This document shows positions 13,476 through 44,480 of a stretch of DNA of 64,000 nt, piece by piece. Every line of letters begins with the position of its first letter. Position 1 is the stretch's first letter. Made by a program: the position numbers and the translations under genes. The stretch lies in NCBI GenBank assembly GCA_030265395.1, contig JARFYF010000063.1, forward strand, positions 26,433,962 to 26,497,961, read 5' to 3'. This DNA is from Rhina ancylostomus. Lineage: Eukaryota. Under the pieces are notes generated by a model. The model saw only the letters and a list, made by a program, of their open reading frames with translations. It did not search any database and was not told the DNA's origin.

Positions 13476-13533
13476 TGCCAAATACAACATGGTGTATAAA
13501 GAGAAGGAGGCATGTCCTGAGAAGAATGACTTC
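13476..13533 (-). CDS. PLPP3: PLPP3 exon 4, 58 nt, contains the C2 motif SGH
   Basis: Acceptor ggtttgttttccag, donor gtaagt. Encodes (R)KSFFSGHASFSLYTMLYLA. Phase 2 start completes the Arg codon from exon 3. Too short for the ORF track. Confidence 0.96.
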
Positions 13534-17295: not shown

Positions 17296-17576
17296 CTTGC
17301 TTCCTGAACCTTGCTTTCATTGCCTCTGCATTCAAAGTTCTCAATGTAACCCAGGGAACAGTTGATGGTTGAAAAATTTGGATTGCAAATATCTAAAAAG
17401 TGTGGCCTCAGGCGACCAACAGACACTTTTGCAATGTCAGTGAAGGACTGGCTTATAGCACAGCCAAAGATGAAGCAGCCAACTTGTCGATACAGAGCAG
17501 CTACATATGGGTTGCGGATAAAGGACTTGGAACGTTCCTTCATGTAATGGATTCGGTAGCATTCTCCTGATATTAT
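17296..17576 (-). CDS. PLPP3: PLPP3 exon 3, 281 nt, contains the C1 phosphatase motif
   Basis: Acceptor ttaacag, donor gtagga. Encodes [94 protein letters not shown], with the PAP2 motif KxxxxxxRP (KVSVGRLRP). Confidence 0.97.
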
Positions 17577-35029: not shown

Positions 35030-36205
35030 TTAGAATCAGATTTATATCACTGACTTATATGTTGTGAAATTTGTTGTTTTGCAGCAGCAGTACAGCGCAA
35101 AGGCATAAAAATTACTCTAAATTACAAAATAAATAAATAATGCCAAAGAAATAGGGACAACGAGATAGTGTTCATGGACCATTCAGAAATCTGATACTGG
35201 AGGGGAAGAAGCTGTTCCTAAAAGATTGGGCATGGGCCTTCAGGCTCCTGTACCACCTCCCCGATGGTAGTAATGAGAAGAGGGTATGTCCTGGATGGCG
35301 AGGGTCCTTAGTGGTGGATACCCCACCTTCTTTGAGGTACCGCCTCTGGAAGATGTTCTCAATGGTGGGGTATATTGTGCCCGTGATGGAGCTGGCTGTG
35401 TCCATAACCCCCTGCAGTCTCTTGCAATCCTGTACAGTGGAGGCTCCATACCAGGTTGTGATGCAACCAGCCAGAATGCTCTCCATCGTACATCTATAGA
35501 AATTTGCAAGAGTCTTTGGTGACATACCAAATCTCCTCAATATCCTAATGAAGTAGAGCCGCTGACATGCCTTCTTTGTGATTGCATCAATGTGTTGGGC
35601 CCGGGCTAGATCCTCCGAGACGTTGACACCCAGGAACTTGAAGCTGCTCACCCTTTCTATCACTGACCCCTCAATGAGGACTGGTGTGTGTTTTCCCGAC
35701 TTCCCCTTCCTGAAGTCCACAATCATTTCCTTGATCTTGCTGACATTGAGTGCGAGATTGTTGTGACACCACTCAAACAGCCAAACTATCTCTCTCCCGT
35801 ATGCCTCATTGTCGCCATCTGAGATTTTACCAACAACAGCAGTATCAACTGTGAATTTATAGATGGTGTTTGAGCTGTGCTTAGACACACAGTCATGAGC
35901 GTAGGGATAGCAGATCAGTGGGCTAAGTACACGTCTGTAATGCCTATGTTGATTGTCAGTGAGGAGGAGATGTTATTACTGGTCTGCAACTGACTGTGGT
36001 CTCCCGATAAGGAAGTCAAGGATCCAGTTGCAGAGAGAGATACAGAGGCCCAAGTTTTGAAGCTTGGTGATTAATGCTGAGGGGATGATGCTGTTGAACG
36101 CCAAGCTGTAATCGATAAACAGCAGCCTGACATATGTTTTGTTGTTGTCTAGATGCTCCAAAGCTGAGTGGAGAGCCACTGAGATTGCATCTGCTGTAAA
36201 CCTGC
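35030..36205 (-). mobile_element. Rex1/Babar-type LINE, 3' part of RT ORF plus tail (degraded)
   Basis: ORFs 35976-36254 ([35 protein letters not shown]) and 35172-35888 (KFTVDT, FKFLGV, KKACQRLYF, FYRCTMESIL, NSFFPSSIR) are typical Rex1 RT and C-terminal blocks. Confidence 0.9.
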
Positions 36206-38224
36206 CGTGCCAAATGCTTGTTTGAGATCCAGTATTGGATGTGTTGAGATTCACTCCAACTTAACATTGGGAAGACTAAGGCCAACATCTTTGGTTCCCT
36301 GCCAAAAGCTCTATTGCTTACTCATAAATGTTCACAACCTTGGGAAATATGCCAAGTCAAATGGCGTATTTGACCCTGAAAGAAGCCCATGACCATATAT
36401 CTATAAAATCATTAAGACTTCCTATTTCCATCTCTCTGATACGGCCCAACTCCATCCTGCTCCAGCTTGTCTGTTGCTGAAACCGTGTTATCTCAAGTCT
36501 CGAATTTAACAATACATTCCTGGCTACCCTCCCACAGTCTGTTCTCCAGGAAATTTAGGTCACTGAAACTCTGCGTTGTTTCTGTCTTAACCAANNNNNN
36601 NNNNNNNNNNNNNNNNNNNNNNNNNNNNNNNNNNNNNNNNNNNNNNNNNNNNNNNNNNNNNNNNNNNNNNNNNNNNNNNNNNNNNNNNNNNNNNNNNNNN
36701 NNNNNNNNNNNNNNNNNNNNNNNNNNNNNNNNNNNNNNNNNNNNNNNNNNNNNNNNNNNNNNNNNNNNNNNNNNNNNNNNNNNNNNNNNNNNNNNNNNNN
36801 NNNNNNNNNNNNNNNNNNNNNNNNNNNNNNNNNNNNNNNNNNNNNNNNNNNNNNNNNNNNNNNNNNNNNNNNNNNNNNNNNNNNNNNNNNNNNNNNNNNN
36901 NNNNNNNNNNNNNNNNNNNNNNNNNNNNNNNNNNNNNNNNNNNNNNNNNNNNNNNNNNNNNNNNNNNNNNNNNNNNNNNNNNNNNNNNNNNNNNNNNNNN
37001 NNNNNNNNNNNNNNNNNNNNNNNNNNNNNNNNNNNNNNNNNNNNNNNNNNNNNNNNNNNNNNNNNNNNTTGACCTGTACGATCAGTTTGTAAGACAAGCT
37101 TTTCACTGTACCTCAGTACAAGTGACAATAATAAACCAATACCAACATCTCCATAAGAAACAGATTAAGGGATAAATACTAGTACACTGTCAATAACCTC
37201 CTTGCTCTTCTTCAGAACAATATTATGGGGCGTCTTATATCCACAAAAGCAGATATTTCTCGCTGCTCAAATCTCTGGAGTTGAGCCCACAACTTCAGAA
37301 TCACAGGTGACATTCTAACCAAATGAGCCACACCTGAACAAAGGTGCCTCATAAATTCAGCTATAGATGTTGTTGAGTCACAATATTAAGAAGCAAATAT
37401 CCAATAAGAAGGTTCAGTTATGTAGAATGTTGGGTTCACTCACAGAATTCTAATTTATGTAATTTTGTCAGGATTGTGCTCGTTAAATGAAGATGCCAAT
37501 TGGTCAGATTGAAACAATTATCTGCTTTGAATAAATGCCGAGGACTCCTGGGTCTGGCACAGTACAAAACGGATATAAATGGACCAGTTTTATAAGAGCA
37601 CTTGTACTGTGAAATATACTGTTCACTGTTTCCCATACCAGACATCCTTGTGGCTTCTCTGAATGAGATTGACAGTATACTGACAACATGTGCCAATTCT
37701 GTATATGGTCAGTCTCGTGCTGCTAATCCCTGCCCATTAAAAATCAAGCTGAGAGCTCACGAATCAATTTCTGATGAACTTCTCTCAGAAACATAAAATA
37801 CAGAGGGGAAGTAAATCAGAGAGAGGAAGCAGTCCCAGAGGATTTAGAAATACAATCAATGGCTAAAGCTAGAAAAAAAACAAATGAGGATAGTGAAGTG
37901 GTGTAACGAGAACTTTCTGTTAAGGCGCTCTCTGTTTTCAATATGTTTCTTTCCCTGTGCATTGTTATATCTGGCAGATGCATCTCATTAGCCATCAATC
38001 ATTTCTGAATTAGAGATACAACTCTGGAAACAAGCAAATTATTGTAGAAACTTTGAACTTTCCTTTTGAGGCTTTGAGGTGGATGGATGCTTAGTGCATT
38101 TGCATTAATTGATGGAACCATCTAAGCTGTTAAACAGGCCTGATGAGGGTCATCAAAACTCTGTTTTTATCTCACCATGAATGTTACCTGGCTTGGTGAG
38201 TATTTTCATCATTTTATATTCACA

Positions 38225-39362
38225 GTCATAAGCTCTGAAACAGGCCCTTCGGCCCAACTGGTCCACGCCGACCAAGATTCCCATCTAAGCTAGTTTCGTT
38301 TGCCTGCTTTTAGCCCATATCCCTCTAAACCTTTCCTATCCACGTAACTGTCCGAATGCCTTTTAAATGTTAATATACCTGCCTGAACAACTTCCTCTGG
38401 CAGCTTATTCCATATGCTGACCATTCTCTGGGTGAAAAAGTTGCCCCCAAGTTCCTATTAAATCTCTCCCATCTCAACTAAAACCTGTGCCCTCTAGTTC
38501 TTGATTCCCCAACCCTGGGAAAAAGACTGTGTGCATTCACCTTAGCTATGCCCATCATAATTTGATATACCTCTATAAGATCACCCCTCATTCCTCTACG
38601 CTCCAATGAAAAAAGTCCCAACCTGCTCAACCTCTCTCCATAACTCAGTCCCTCAAATCCTGGCATCACCTTCGTAAATCTCTGCACTCTTTCCAGCTGA
38701 CTGGCATCTTTCCTATAGCAGGGTGACCAAAACTGAACACAATATTCCAAGTGTGCCCTCTCCAACATCTTCTACTACTGCAACATAAGACCCCAACTTC
38801 TATACTCATTGCCTTGATTGATGAAGGCAAGCATGCCAAAAGCTTTCTTCACCACCCAGTCTACCTGCAACGCCACATTTAGGGAACCATATATTTGTAC
38901 TCCTAGGACCCTCTGTTCTACAACATTCCCCAGGGCCCTACCATTCACTGTGAAGGTCCTACCCTCATTCGTCTTCCCAAACTGCAACACCTCACACTTA
39001 CCTGAATTAAACTCCTTGTTCAACTCCTCTGTAAATCCTGGTAACCACCTTCACCGTCAATGACACTACCTACTTTAGTGTCATCTGCAAACTTATCAAC
39101 CATGCCTTGTACATTCTCATCCAATCACTGATCTGGATGACAAATAGCAATGGGCCTAGCACCAACCCCTGGGGAACACCGCTAGTCACAGGCGTCCAGT
39201 CTGAAAAATAACCTTCCACCATCACCCTCTGCTTCCTACCATCAAGCCAATTCCATATCCAGTTAGCTAGCTCTCCCTGGATCCCATGCAATCTAACTTT
39301 CCATAGCAGCCTGCCATTGGAACCTTATCAAAGGCTTACTGAAGTCCCTATGGACCACGTCT
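38225..39362 (-). mobile_element. CR1 (HER1-like) LINE, 1.1 kb of ORF2 3' half
   Basis: ORFs with VTSGVPQGLVLGPLLF, FNSGKCEVLQFG, LEYCVQFWSP and ESRTRGHRF; tail gggccgaagggcctgtttc. Confidence 0.93.
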
Positions 39363-41911: not shown

Positions 41912-42069
41912 AGAGAGGATGGTGATTAGAATACCAGCAGCACAAAGCACAGCATCACTGATTGTTTCTCCATTCTTATAAGGATACTTGATGCTTTCGT
42001 CATTGCAGTAAAATCCACGCTTATAAGGTTTGATGGTGCTAGTTTCGATAACCAGGAAAGGGAGGCCAG
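41912..42069 (-). CDS. PLPP3: PLPP3 canonical exon 2 (2B), 158 nt
   Basis: Acceptor ...cctttccattag, donor gtaagt. Translation (A)[52 protein letters not shown] closely matches the recalled mammalian PLPP3 segment. Phase 1 start, phase 0 end, in frame with exon 3. Confidence 0.97.
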
Positions 42070-43268
42070 CTAATGGAAAGGACGACAACAGATACAGACA
42101 AAGCAAGGGTAAGTAACATAGACAACAAATAGCTTAGGAGCATAACTGCTTCAACAAAGTAAAATGTGGCATTAGAGGACAAATAGTATAAATATTCTCT
42201 CCACTCTTCCATACCATACGGTGCAATGATGAAATTATAAACCCTGTGTGAACACAAGTGTGGAATTCAGGTGGTAGAATTTATCAGAATTACTTGCAAA
42301 AATGTTTTTGTTGGATGTTGGGAAAGTCAGACCTTCTTTAAACAGATTTCAAAAAAATTCACTTTTAATTAAGTATTTGAATATGGATCTCTTATTCATA
42401 TCAACAGAGAAAATTCTGTTCAGGTTCTATTATGATGAGCTTGTCACTCATTTTGTTGGGGTTTAAGTATCCTGGCTAACAGCAATAAATACTAAATGAT
42501 TCCATATCTATTATCATGTGATTGGTATTACTATTACTCCCATAGATCTACAAGGTGTATCAGCATACGAGTTGTTCTAACTATTGGGTTAATCATCCAA
42601 TTCCTTCATTATTCTTTGAAATACATCTGTTACTCTTTTTTAACTTCCACTCTTCATTTTTTCCCCACCTCCTCTTGTTTTTTGGCATTGCTTTTTTATT
42701 AGCTATTTTGCTGCTTTTCTCCTCGGCTCCACTTGCTTTTGTAAAGTTCTGCGTAATGTCATACATATGGCAGGAAAGAACACTGCCCTTTCATCTCTGG
42801 GACCTAAGTTCAACCCAGATACAAAGAATGATAAGCTTCCCATCATCCCTGCCGTCCCTCTCCCTCACACTAAGACCAGCGAACAAAGCAATTTGGTCTC
42901 AGCTAAGTCCAAAAGTCAGGGCCAGTGCACAAAGGTTTTAAAAATATTTTACTGGTGCAGTAACCAGCGTTGTTCTGAAATCAAGGCTTGCTTATTTTTA
43001 GTCTGAGAATGATCTTTTGCTGGAAAAGTTGAAATATGTTTTTGATTTCCTGGGAGTATTAGTAAAACTATAAGAACATAAGTTAATGAGAGTATAATGG
43101 CTTACAACTTTAGGCTTCCATGTCATCTTCATGCTGCTCATTTAGAAGAACTTCTAAGATGTGCAGAGCACAGTCCACGTGGAAAAGTGAACTGCCAAGA
43201 ATCAGAGACCCCATCAGGAAAAGAAATACTGTCAGGAAATGCCGCATTTTACTTTGTCTTGGCTTGGC

Positions 43269-43274
43269 CATGCA
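43269..43274 (-). promoter_or_regulatory. Candidate RBFOX intronic splicing enhancer UGCAUG
   Basis: Minus strand reads gtaagtttatatctgctggTGCATGgcc; the motif is at intron positions +20 to +25 after the exon 2A donor. Confidence 0.45.
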
Positions 43275-43293
43275 CCAGCAGATATAAACTTAC

Positions 43294-43448
43294 ACAAGAA
43301 ATTGGCAGTAGTGTTCCCACTACTAAGAGCAGGAGACTGGATACCACACTTTTCTTATTGCTGTACTTGATGCTGTCATCATCGCAGTAAAACCCTCTTT
43401 GATAAGGAGAGATGCCTGCAACATTTATAATTGCAGTTGGAAGAATAA
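43294..43448 (-). CDS. PLPP3: Alternative, probably mutually exclusive, PLPP3 exon 2A, 155 nt
   Basis: Acceptor tttctttattcattcag, donor gtaagt. Open frame (V)ILPTAIINVAGISPYQRGFYCDDDSIKYSNKKSVVSSLLLLVVGTLLPISC shares the PY.RGFYC.D.SIKY motif and phases 1/0 with exon 2B. Confidence 0.9.
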
Positions 43449-43689: not shown

Positions 43690-44480
43690 CACAAGTCGAG
43701 GACTGATTAAGGATAGTCAGTACAGCTTTGTGAGTGGGAAATTGTGTCTCACAAATTTGATTAAGTTTTTCTGAAGAGGTGACCGAGAGGTTTAACGAGG
43801 ACAGCATGACGGACGTTGTTCACATGGACTTTAGCAAAGCTTTTCACAAGATCCCGCATGGTAGGCTCGTCCAGAAGTTTGGTTACACATGGGATCCAGA
43901 GTGAGCTAGCCAATTGGATACAAGACAATGGTGAGACCGCAGTTGGAATATTGTATGTGGTACTGATTTCCAAGCTATATGAAAAATGTCATTAAGCTGG
44001 AAAGGGTGCAGAAAAGATTCACAAGAATGTTAGCTGGGCTGGAGGGTTTAAGTTATAAGGATGGACTGGATAGGCTGGGATCCCTGCAGGGATTTTTCCC
44101 CTGCAGGGTAGGAGGCTGAGGGGTGACATTATAGAAGTATATAAAATCATGAGGGCCATAGATAAGGTGAATGGTCATGGCCTTTTTCCCCCAAGGCAGG
44201 GGAATATAAAACTAGAGGGCATAGATTTAAGGTGAGAGGGTAGGAGTTGAAAGGGGACATGAGGGGCAACTTTTTCCACACAGAAGGTGGTGGGGATGTG
44301 GTATGAACTACAGGAGGAAGTGGTAGAGACGGGTACAAATACAATGTTTAAAAAGGTACTTAGACAGGTACATGGATAAGAAAGGTTTAGAGGGATATGG
44401 GCCAAATGGGGCAAACTCAGATAGGCAACTTGGTTGGCATGGACATGTTGGGCCACGCTGTACAACTCGATGACTCTGTG
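43690..44480 (+). mobile_element. Internally deleted CR1 LINE
   Basis: RT block (cagctttgtg..gtctcacaaatttgatt..atggactttagcaaagctttt) jumps near 43923 to the C-terminal block (gaaagggtgcagaaaagattcac..actagagggcatagatttaagg) and tail. Confidence 0.88.

Follow-up and report, generated by a model that had tools for sequence, protein, structure and literature searches.

The window analysed here is a stretch of 64,000 nucleotides from Rhina ancylostomus (assembly GCA_030265395.1, contig JARFYF010000063.1, positions 26,433,962 to 26,497,961), and it carries exons 2 to 4 of PLPP3, all on the minus strand. Exon 2 is present in two versions, exon 2A at 43294..43448 (155 nt) and exon 2B at 41912..42069 (158 nt), which are separated by an A-B intron of 1224 nt (42070..43293); exon 3 (17296..17576, 281 nt, starting in phase 0, with loose read ends) carries catalytic motif C1, and exon 4 (13476..13533, 58 nt) carries motif C2. 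Exon 1 lies outside the window at C63:26523208-26523336, 45.8 kb upstream of 2A, and exons 5 and 6 are also beyond it. Exon 2A has an AG acceptor after a pyrimidine tract, a GTAAGT donor and an open frame; its placement was based on splice sites, reads, RefSeq isoform X2 and a model, and that of 2B on splice sites, reads and alignment to the human PLPP3 chain 25qp_A. Exon 2B is the canonical exon, the one in human PLPP3. The gene tree identified the gene as PLPP3, with its constitutive exons grouping at 99/96 with PLPP3 of chimaera, loach and frog, and the alignment showed that the catalytic columns of motifs C1-C3 were invariant in the constitutive exons.

Exons 2A and 2B are homologous, lie in tandem and have equal entry and exit phases (phase 1 to 0), with 22/51 residues identical. 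Exon 2A codes for the outer part of TM1, extracellular loop 1 and the outer part of TM2, and it is an alpha-2-like, ancestral-type copy. No third exon-2 copy or other A exon was found in the window or in the 30 kb up to exon 1, and the best non-exon score in the exon-2 scans of this genome was 10.5 bits, against 40-108 bits for true exons. The PLPP3 introns also hold LINE-like repeat fragments of the reverse-transcriptase type at 35175-36260 (minus), 38481-39324 (minus) and 43690-44200, which were recognised from their translation and from multi-copy read pile-ups.

RNA evidence was taken from three raw-read runs and one contig set at a likeness threshold of 95%, and between one fifth and one quarter of every raw run was covered. 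The reads differed from the window at fixed positions and therefore derive from a different individual or a closely related species. Nine reads (run X9) joined exon 1 to 2A and four (run X8) joined 2A to exon 3, and in run X6 a 214-nt contig followed the path exon 1-2A-exon 3 at a depth of 16.7, compared with 64.1 for a 217-nt contig through 2B. For 2B, junctions with exon 1 had 3, 6 and 15 reads and junctions with exon 3 had 8, 5 and 19 reads, and no 2A-2B joint was seen among the junctions of the four RNA runs, all of which gave low counts. Because both exons run from phase 1 to phase 0, joint use or joint skipping gives an early stop, at codon 142 with both exons and at codon 89 with neither, and such transcripts would presumably be removed by nonsense-mediated decay. 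Exons 2A and 2B are a spliced, homologous, mutually exclusive pair of PLPP3. The RefSeq "isoform X2" models also included 2A in 11/11 shark and ray matches at 84-88% identity, with 88% for that of Rhinoraja longicauda. Part of exon 2A (43364-43407, 44 nt) is 91% identical to exon A of PLPP1, so PLPP1 reads cross-map on 2A at 90%, which is a trap for expression counts; since PLPP1 exon A reads did map onto 2A at 90%, only the 95% mapping was used.

The supplement of PMC8373072 places the human PLPP1 alpha-2 exon at chr5:55490960-55491114 (155 nt) and the alpha-1 exon at 55475299-55475450 (152 nt), and PMC5740500 gives the alpha-2 exon as frame 1-0 and 155 nt. The bat gene model P0165 has the order A then B. 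This agrees with alpha-2 lying upstream of alpha-1 in human PLPP1, which follows if that gene is on the minus strand, as we take it to be. The human alpha-2 peptide that the earlier note had given matched the PMC8373072 supplement letter for letter, and by comparison with the published peptide it aligned to 2A without gaps, as that note had said. The motifs listed there as common to 2A and alpha-2 were all present, but most of them turned out to be ancestral and to occur in invertebrates too. A count by eye on the printed peptide gave 23/51 identical residues between human alpha-2 and 2A, barely above the 22/51 between 2A and 2B; the alpha-2 exons of bat and rodent also gave 22/51, and the mammalian alpha-2 exon sits on a long branch in the exon tree.

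This genome has four PLPP1-3 genes, and its PLPP1 (C52) has two exon-2 copies, an upstream one of 155 nt and a downstream one of 152 nt. Non-mammalian upstream exons of PLPP1 show the likeness to 2A more clearly than the mammalian ones. The upstream copy was identical to 2A at 27/51 positions (E 3.2e-11, compared with 7.4e-6 against 2B), the PLPP1 upstream exons of chimaera and coelacanth at 29/51 and 27/51, and the downstream copy at 19/50. The A exon is upstream and 155 nt long in PLPP3 and PLPP1 of this genome, in human PLPP1 and in two fish PLPP3 contigs. A comparison of the introns around the PLPP3 and PLPP1 exons gave no conserved flanks beyond the exons themselves. We also considered that 2A could be a recent shark- and ray-specific copy or a silent pseudo-exon with a chance likeness to alpha-2, a reading for which the only support is the low identity to the human exon. 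It was refuted by the splicing of 2A in RNA and by the presence of A exons in teleosts and frogs, to which the chimaera A exon and the 84-88% identity across 11 sharks and rays can be added, and we give it next to no credence.

Vertebrate-only exon trees split the A exons from the B exons with support of 95/90 (33 rows), 98/98 (46 rows) and 97/96, and the split had 95/83 after the TM2 motif of the PLPP1/2 B exons was set in register; a PLPP2 row (P0305) was left out of the exon trees, and 11 redundant rows were dropped from the outgroup tree. In these trees 2A grouped with the PLPP1 alpha-2-type exons and did not cluster with PLPP3 2B, and the A exon was the upstream one in both PLPP1 and PLPP3. 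A four-taxon site count gave 16 sites for the A|B split vs 5 and 8. With invertebrate outgroups, the B exons formed one clade (98/98, 96/97, 95/93), and the A exons formed an unresolved grade at the root and no clade, with a crinoid nested with PLPP3 A. The inner shape of the B clade repeated the gene tree, ((PLPP1,PLPP2),(PLPP3,PLPP3-like)), in which PLPP3 and PLPP3-like grouped at 98/93 and PLPP1 and PLPP2 at 99/97, with the cyclostome genes unplaced between both lineages.

The A profile outscored the B profile in 53/70 invertebrate segments (8/78 invertebrate-like proteins had been dropped from this comparison for non-canonical spacing), so the shared A motifs are mostly ancestral. The columns that mark the B exons were a Phe after the TM1 proline (21/22 B exons, 0/24 A exons, 2/42 invertebrate-like proteins) and an Asp or Glu before TM2 (22/22 B exons; Ser at that column in 24/24 A exons), with Asp at this acidic column also in 18/70 invertebrates. 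At the level of sequence, the two genes are tied together by the fact that the B exons of PLPP1/2/3 and of lampreys form a single clade, not by the A motifs. The earlier note had inferred that the exon duplicated before the PLPP1/PLPP3 split; the trees and the upstream order speak for this, and it is likely right, for another reason than the one given there.

AU tests rejected neither the gene-wise nor the crossed split (p 0.055-0.26), because 51 columns are too few. For the gene-wise split the p values were 0.128, 0.11 and 0.26 (0.083 and 0.185 with outgroups), which would suit two independent tandem duplications, one per lineage, after the split of PLPP1 and PLPP3 and before 2R, with convergent downstream copies. 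Such a history would also fit the largely ancestral likeness among the A exons, and exons have often been duplicated convergently in this class, with fly wunen entered as "different region, convergent"; but it needs two gains, and order and derived residues would have to agree between them, it had the lower likelihood in all tests, by 3.4 to 17.4 log units, and the B exons were a supported clade in every tree. We regard it as unlikely.

Some counts do stand against a single origin. This genome's 2B scored 66 bits on the PLPP1-A profile vs 65 bits on the PLPP1/2-B profile, and PLPP3 B exons in general scored about equally on both; PLPP3 2B was identical to PLPP1 A at 25/51 positions and to PLPP1 B at 25/50. 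The longer TM1 spacing is common to the A exons and the B exons on the PLPP3 side, and the shorter spacing of the PLPP1/2 B exons is found in 37/46 invertebrates having the proline there, so the single-origin explanation needs a reversal. These counts would be accounted for by an old duplication followed, in the PLPP3 lineage, by a renewed copying of the upstream exon into the downstream place, or by its partial conversion of the downstream one, so that PLPP3 2B is not a true alpha-1 ortholog, and a clade of all longer-spacing exons was not rejected by the AU test (p 0.073). The same tree was 11.6 log units worse, and the Phe and the Asp/Glu common to all B exons would need convergence, so that we find this reading unlikely too, by a hair more than the two duplications. 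An insertion is common to the B exons of PLPP3 and PLPP3-like, and a shorter TM1 end to those of PLPP1 and PLPP2; as the A exons of both genes have neither B indel, the duplication is older than the PLPP1/PLPP2 and PLPP3/PLPP3-like splits on any reading.

Thus, the exon pair is very probably older than the split of PLPP1 and PLPP3, and we consider one shared origin of the pair, before the two genes separated, to be probable as well. In the favoured history, exon 2 would have been duplicated in tandem once, on the vertebrate stem, and PLPP3 would have parted from PLPP1/2 only afterwards, in a gene duplication that was likely 1R, so that 2A would be the likely ortholog of the PLPP1 alpha-2 exon and 2B that of alpha-1. 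The upstream copy (A) would have stayed near the invertebrate state, and the downstream copy (B) would have gained the Phe after the TM1 proline and the acidic residue before TM2. Both exons would then have been kept in PLPP1 and in fish and frog PLPP3, and only B in PLPP2, PLPP3-like and, probably, amniote PLPP3. The first round of genome duplication is placed before cyclostomes branched off, about 527 Ma, with 2R confined to gnathostomes (PMC10972751). We infer that PLPP1 and PLPP3 are a 1R pair and that the genes on C57 and C65 are the small-chromosome copies; this timing comes from the tree shape and the contig sizes (139 and 141 Mb vs 20 and 34 Mb), not from synteny.

A profile search for A exons gave 148 matches, of which 120 were listed, and its 90% clusters can mask isoforms. 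The matches listed included A exons of PLPP1 over a range from sharks to birds, and A exons of PLPP3 in sharks, rays, four teleosts and six frogs; cluster look-ups added PLPP3 A in pipefishes and in the chimaera Callorhinchus milii (NP_001279689.1, P0121), and further isoform X2 models with the A exon were XP_078264584.1, XP_055043185.1 and XP_075142568.1. Two fish-like contigs, L092 and L093, have PLPP3 A (155 nt) followed by B (158 nt). No A exon of reptile, bird or mammal PLPP3, or of any PLPP2, was among the matches listed, in contrast to the many reptile and bird A exons of PLPP1. Human PPAP2B/PLPP3 does not appear in the PMC8373072 and PMC5740500 supplements, which do list PPAP2A. Amniote PLPP3 appears to have lost the A exon.

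In this genome, PLPP2 (C57) has a single exon 2 of the B type after an intron 1 of about 58 kb (about 2.3 kb of it N), and the same holds for PLPP3-like (C65), whose intron 1 is about 51 kb, including about 7.6 kb of N; a scan of 100 kb over each of the two genes found no A exon. The earlier note had proposed that the exon was later lost from mammalian PLPP3. Such a loss fits these results, but limiting it to mammals was too narrow, as the exon was not seen in bird or reptile PLPP3 among the matches listed and is missing from PLPP2 and PLPP3-like of this genome. The PLPP3-like gene (G000:C65:4778285-4856835; L002, L008, L021) is a fourth PLPP1-3 gene and the sister of PLPP3, with relatives in teleosts and one monitor lizard; we know of no human counterpart. 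One further contig (L094) has an amniote-like B exon with less than 500 nt upstream, so it is silent on the loss. Some divergent marsupial and rodent "PLPP2/3-like" proteins (P0175, P0197, P0205, P0221) have altered catalytic motifs and are possibly inactive. The viral and prokaryote collections yielded nothing relevant, and the ESM Atlas gave PAP2 clusters only.

In cyclostomes, PLPP3-type B exons occur in three lamprey proteins and an A-type exon in the hagfish protein P0150, and no cyclostome gene with both exon types was found among the protein sequences, the only material covered for this group. Sea lamprey P0280 and P0291/P0293 have two different B-type exon-2 sequences before a near-identical body, and their accession numbers are adjacent; they would be either tandem genes or products of a lamprey-specific duplicated B exon. 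The N-terminally cut hagfish protein P0171 has a partial exon 2 with a B-like Asp-Thr start and an A-like Gly...Pro end, and it was unplaced in the gene tree.

The switch swaps the outer part of TM1, loop 1 and the outer part of TM2, and leaves the catalytic motifs in the later exons untouched. The model of the A isoform folded as a normal PLPP (mean pLDDT 79.5; 79-89 over the exon), with helices at 24-52 and 80-104, and it matched human LPP1 (9l0i) with a TM-score of 0.96 by target and an rmsd of 1.4. For human PLPP1, the lipid-chain tunnel is described as lined by F24, T28, Y56, I64, I68 and L106, with loop-1 residues making subunit contacts (PMC13745504), and for human PLPP3, F51 and I93 are described as lining the cleft, with a disulfide and tetramer contacts in loop 1 (PMC13500480). 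A residue count on the alpha-1/alpha-2 sequence placed 5/6 of the PLPP1 tunnel residues (F24, T28, Y56, I64, I68) in exon 2. PLPP1 F24 and PLPP3 F51 are the same position, that of the B-specific Phe, and the A exons have Leu or Met there in PLPP1 and Ala, Ser, Thr or Val in PLPP3. The loop-1 proline (PLPP1 P48, a subunit contact), which the other exons retain, was replaced in 11/11 aligned PLPP3 A exons and kept in L093. The F51A mutant of human PLPP3 is reported to release phosphate from PA unchanged (PMC13500480). This lack of effect on PA hydrolysis argues against a large functional effect. The form named LPP1a is, we assume, the alpha-2 form of human PLPP1. According to a review, LPP1a hydrolyses S1P and FTY720-phosphate better than LPP1 (PMC7564803). 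The switch would retune the lipid-chain cleft and the subunit contacts, with the preference moved towards sphingoid phosphates in the way described for human LPP1a.

The A-B intron carries a predicted closing stem, whose 5' arm lies at 43238..43257 (minus strand, +37 to +56 after the 2A donor) and whose 3' arm lies at 42154..42173 (minus strand, -104 to -85 before the 2B acceptor). The two arms form a 20-nt inverted repeat with 19/20 Watson-Crick pairs and a pair probability of 0.91-0.98 in the folded intron. Its score was reached by 0/500 shuffles, by 6/3000 random real window pairs and by 1/1054 real 1224-nt windows, this one possibly the A-B intron itself. The arms are no common repeat, as the genome gave six matches at no more than one mismatch and the two exact ones were the arms themselves. 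A TGCATG hexamer at 43269..43274 (minus strand), 20 nt after the 2A donor, is presumably an RBFOX-type motif, and it was not conserved in the two fish introns. A motif scan gave a candidate 2B branch site at 42133..42137 (minus strand, branch A at -65) and a second candidate with its A at -41 (window position 42110, minus strand).

The A-B introns of the two fish contigs are 351 and 401 nt long, with whole-intron fold z values of -3.3 and -1.7. The intron of L093 was closed alike, by +20..+36 with -132..-116 (0/500 shuffles; region 253-269), and that of L092 by +13..+24 with -137..-126, with one pair broken and 13/500 shuffles reaching the best score (region 327-338), so a closing stem was predicted in 3/3 PLPP3 A-B introns examined. 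A six-letter core is alike in all three predicted stems, whose ray and fish arms may be homologous. Of the 39 predicted pairs common to the two fish, three had changed on one side, and there was no double compensatory change. At the ends of the 24.7-kb PLPP1 intron there was neither a closing stem nor an RBFOX-type motif by exon A. A search for a competing third arm at no more than five mismatches gave weak matches only, and a 10-bp match downstream of 2B was at chance level.

Once the stem has formed, 50, 56 and 56 unpaired nt would lie between the 2A donor and the best branch-like site in the three introns, or 80 nt with the other ray candidate. The stem would thereby leave the donor some 50-56 nt away from the candidate branch site of 2B, too near for easy joining. 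PMC5740500 gives the steric limit as under 50 nt and frameshift with decay as the common mechanism. The distances found are at or above this limit, and they weigh against a steric model. We lean towards the stem being functional; that it acts by steric block is a tentative suggestion, which we hold with clearly less conviction.

Put together, the switch may be a pre-1R invention, more than about 527 million years old, between an ancestral wide-cleft form active on sphingoid phosphates and a derived Phe-gated form, with the pair kept by the large-chromosome ohnologs, lost by the small-chromosome ones and lost later from amniote PLPP3, and with a stem in fish PLPP3 that has sterically blocked joining since the split of sharks and bony fishes. 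As a whole, this chain is speculative and we think it doubtful.

The human pair is on record as event 163 of Martinez-Gomez 2021 (PMC8373072) and as the PPAP2A row of Abascal 2015 (PMC4494069). In both tables the event is assigned to jawed vertebrates (PMC8373072 writes Gnathostomata and sets no flag for gene duplication), and for human neither marks it as shared with a paralog; the rows themselves give no tree, no cyclostome exons, no PLPP2 or PLPP3-like losses and no splicing mechanism. One line of the Abascal 2015 supplement already notes the pair in fish PPAP2B, and the main text does not mention the gene (PMC4494069). The sharing of the exon pair with PLPP3 has thus been on record since 2015, and the core of our finding was known. 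RefSeq PLPP3 isoform X2 models of sharks, rays, teleosts and frogs have the same exon, by automatic annotation only. We found no publication on the PLPP3 A isoform, the pre-split origin or the stem, with most subscription journals outside our coverage; new with respect to the literature found are the A-B intron stem, in this genome and two fish contigs, and the Phe swap in the acyl cleft.

If the dating is right, the human alpha-1/alpha-2 switch did not originate in "jawed vertebrates" but earlier, ahead of the divergence of PLPP1 and PLPP3. In fish and frogs, PLPP3 comes in a second form that human PLPP3 lacks and whose lipid cleft and subunit surface differ. This matters for zebrafish and frog work on LPA/S1P signalling, in which exon-2 reagents may reach just one of the two forms. 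With recent cryo-EM structures the consequences of the swap have become testable, and in fish the intron is short enough (350-400 nt) for an easy minigene assay of whether RNA folding keeps exons apart sterically in a vertebrate. Events of this class are familiar and PLPP3 was already known to share the pair, so the surprise is modest. The value lies mostly in the dating, the loss pattern and the stem.

Several known systems resemble the predicted PLPP3 stem. Muh in 2002 reportedly described an intronic stem in FGFR2 IIIb/IIIc, and Yue in 2013 is said to have described steric hindrance and RNA structure at Dscam exon 17. For ATE1, RNA-structure control of mutually exclusive exons is reported through the elements R1-R5. 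In all three, as in PLPP3, two elements pair inside the intron between the exons, but the PLPP3 stem is a predicted one and has no competing third element at no more than five mismatches. As for the exons, the human PLPP1 (PPAP2A) pair is like the PLPP3 pair in having the same place in the gene, the same phases and an upstream exon of 155 nt. Exon pairs kept across ohnologs are listed for the JNK genes MAPK8/9/10, AMPA receptors, MEF2 and CACNA1C/D/F/S (PMC4494069), and they are like the PLPP pair in that an ancestral pair came through the early duplications with losses from some paralogs. Unlike in these families, just one of the human PLPP paralogs still has both exons, and a comparison restricted to human genes therefore conceals how old the pair is.
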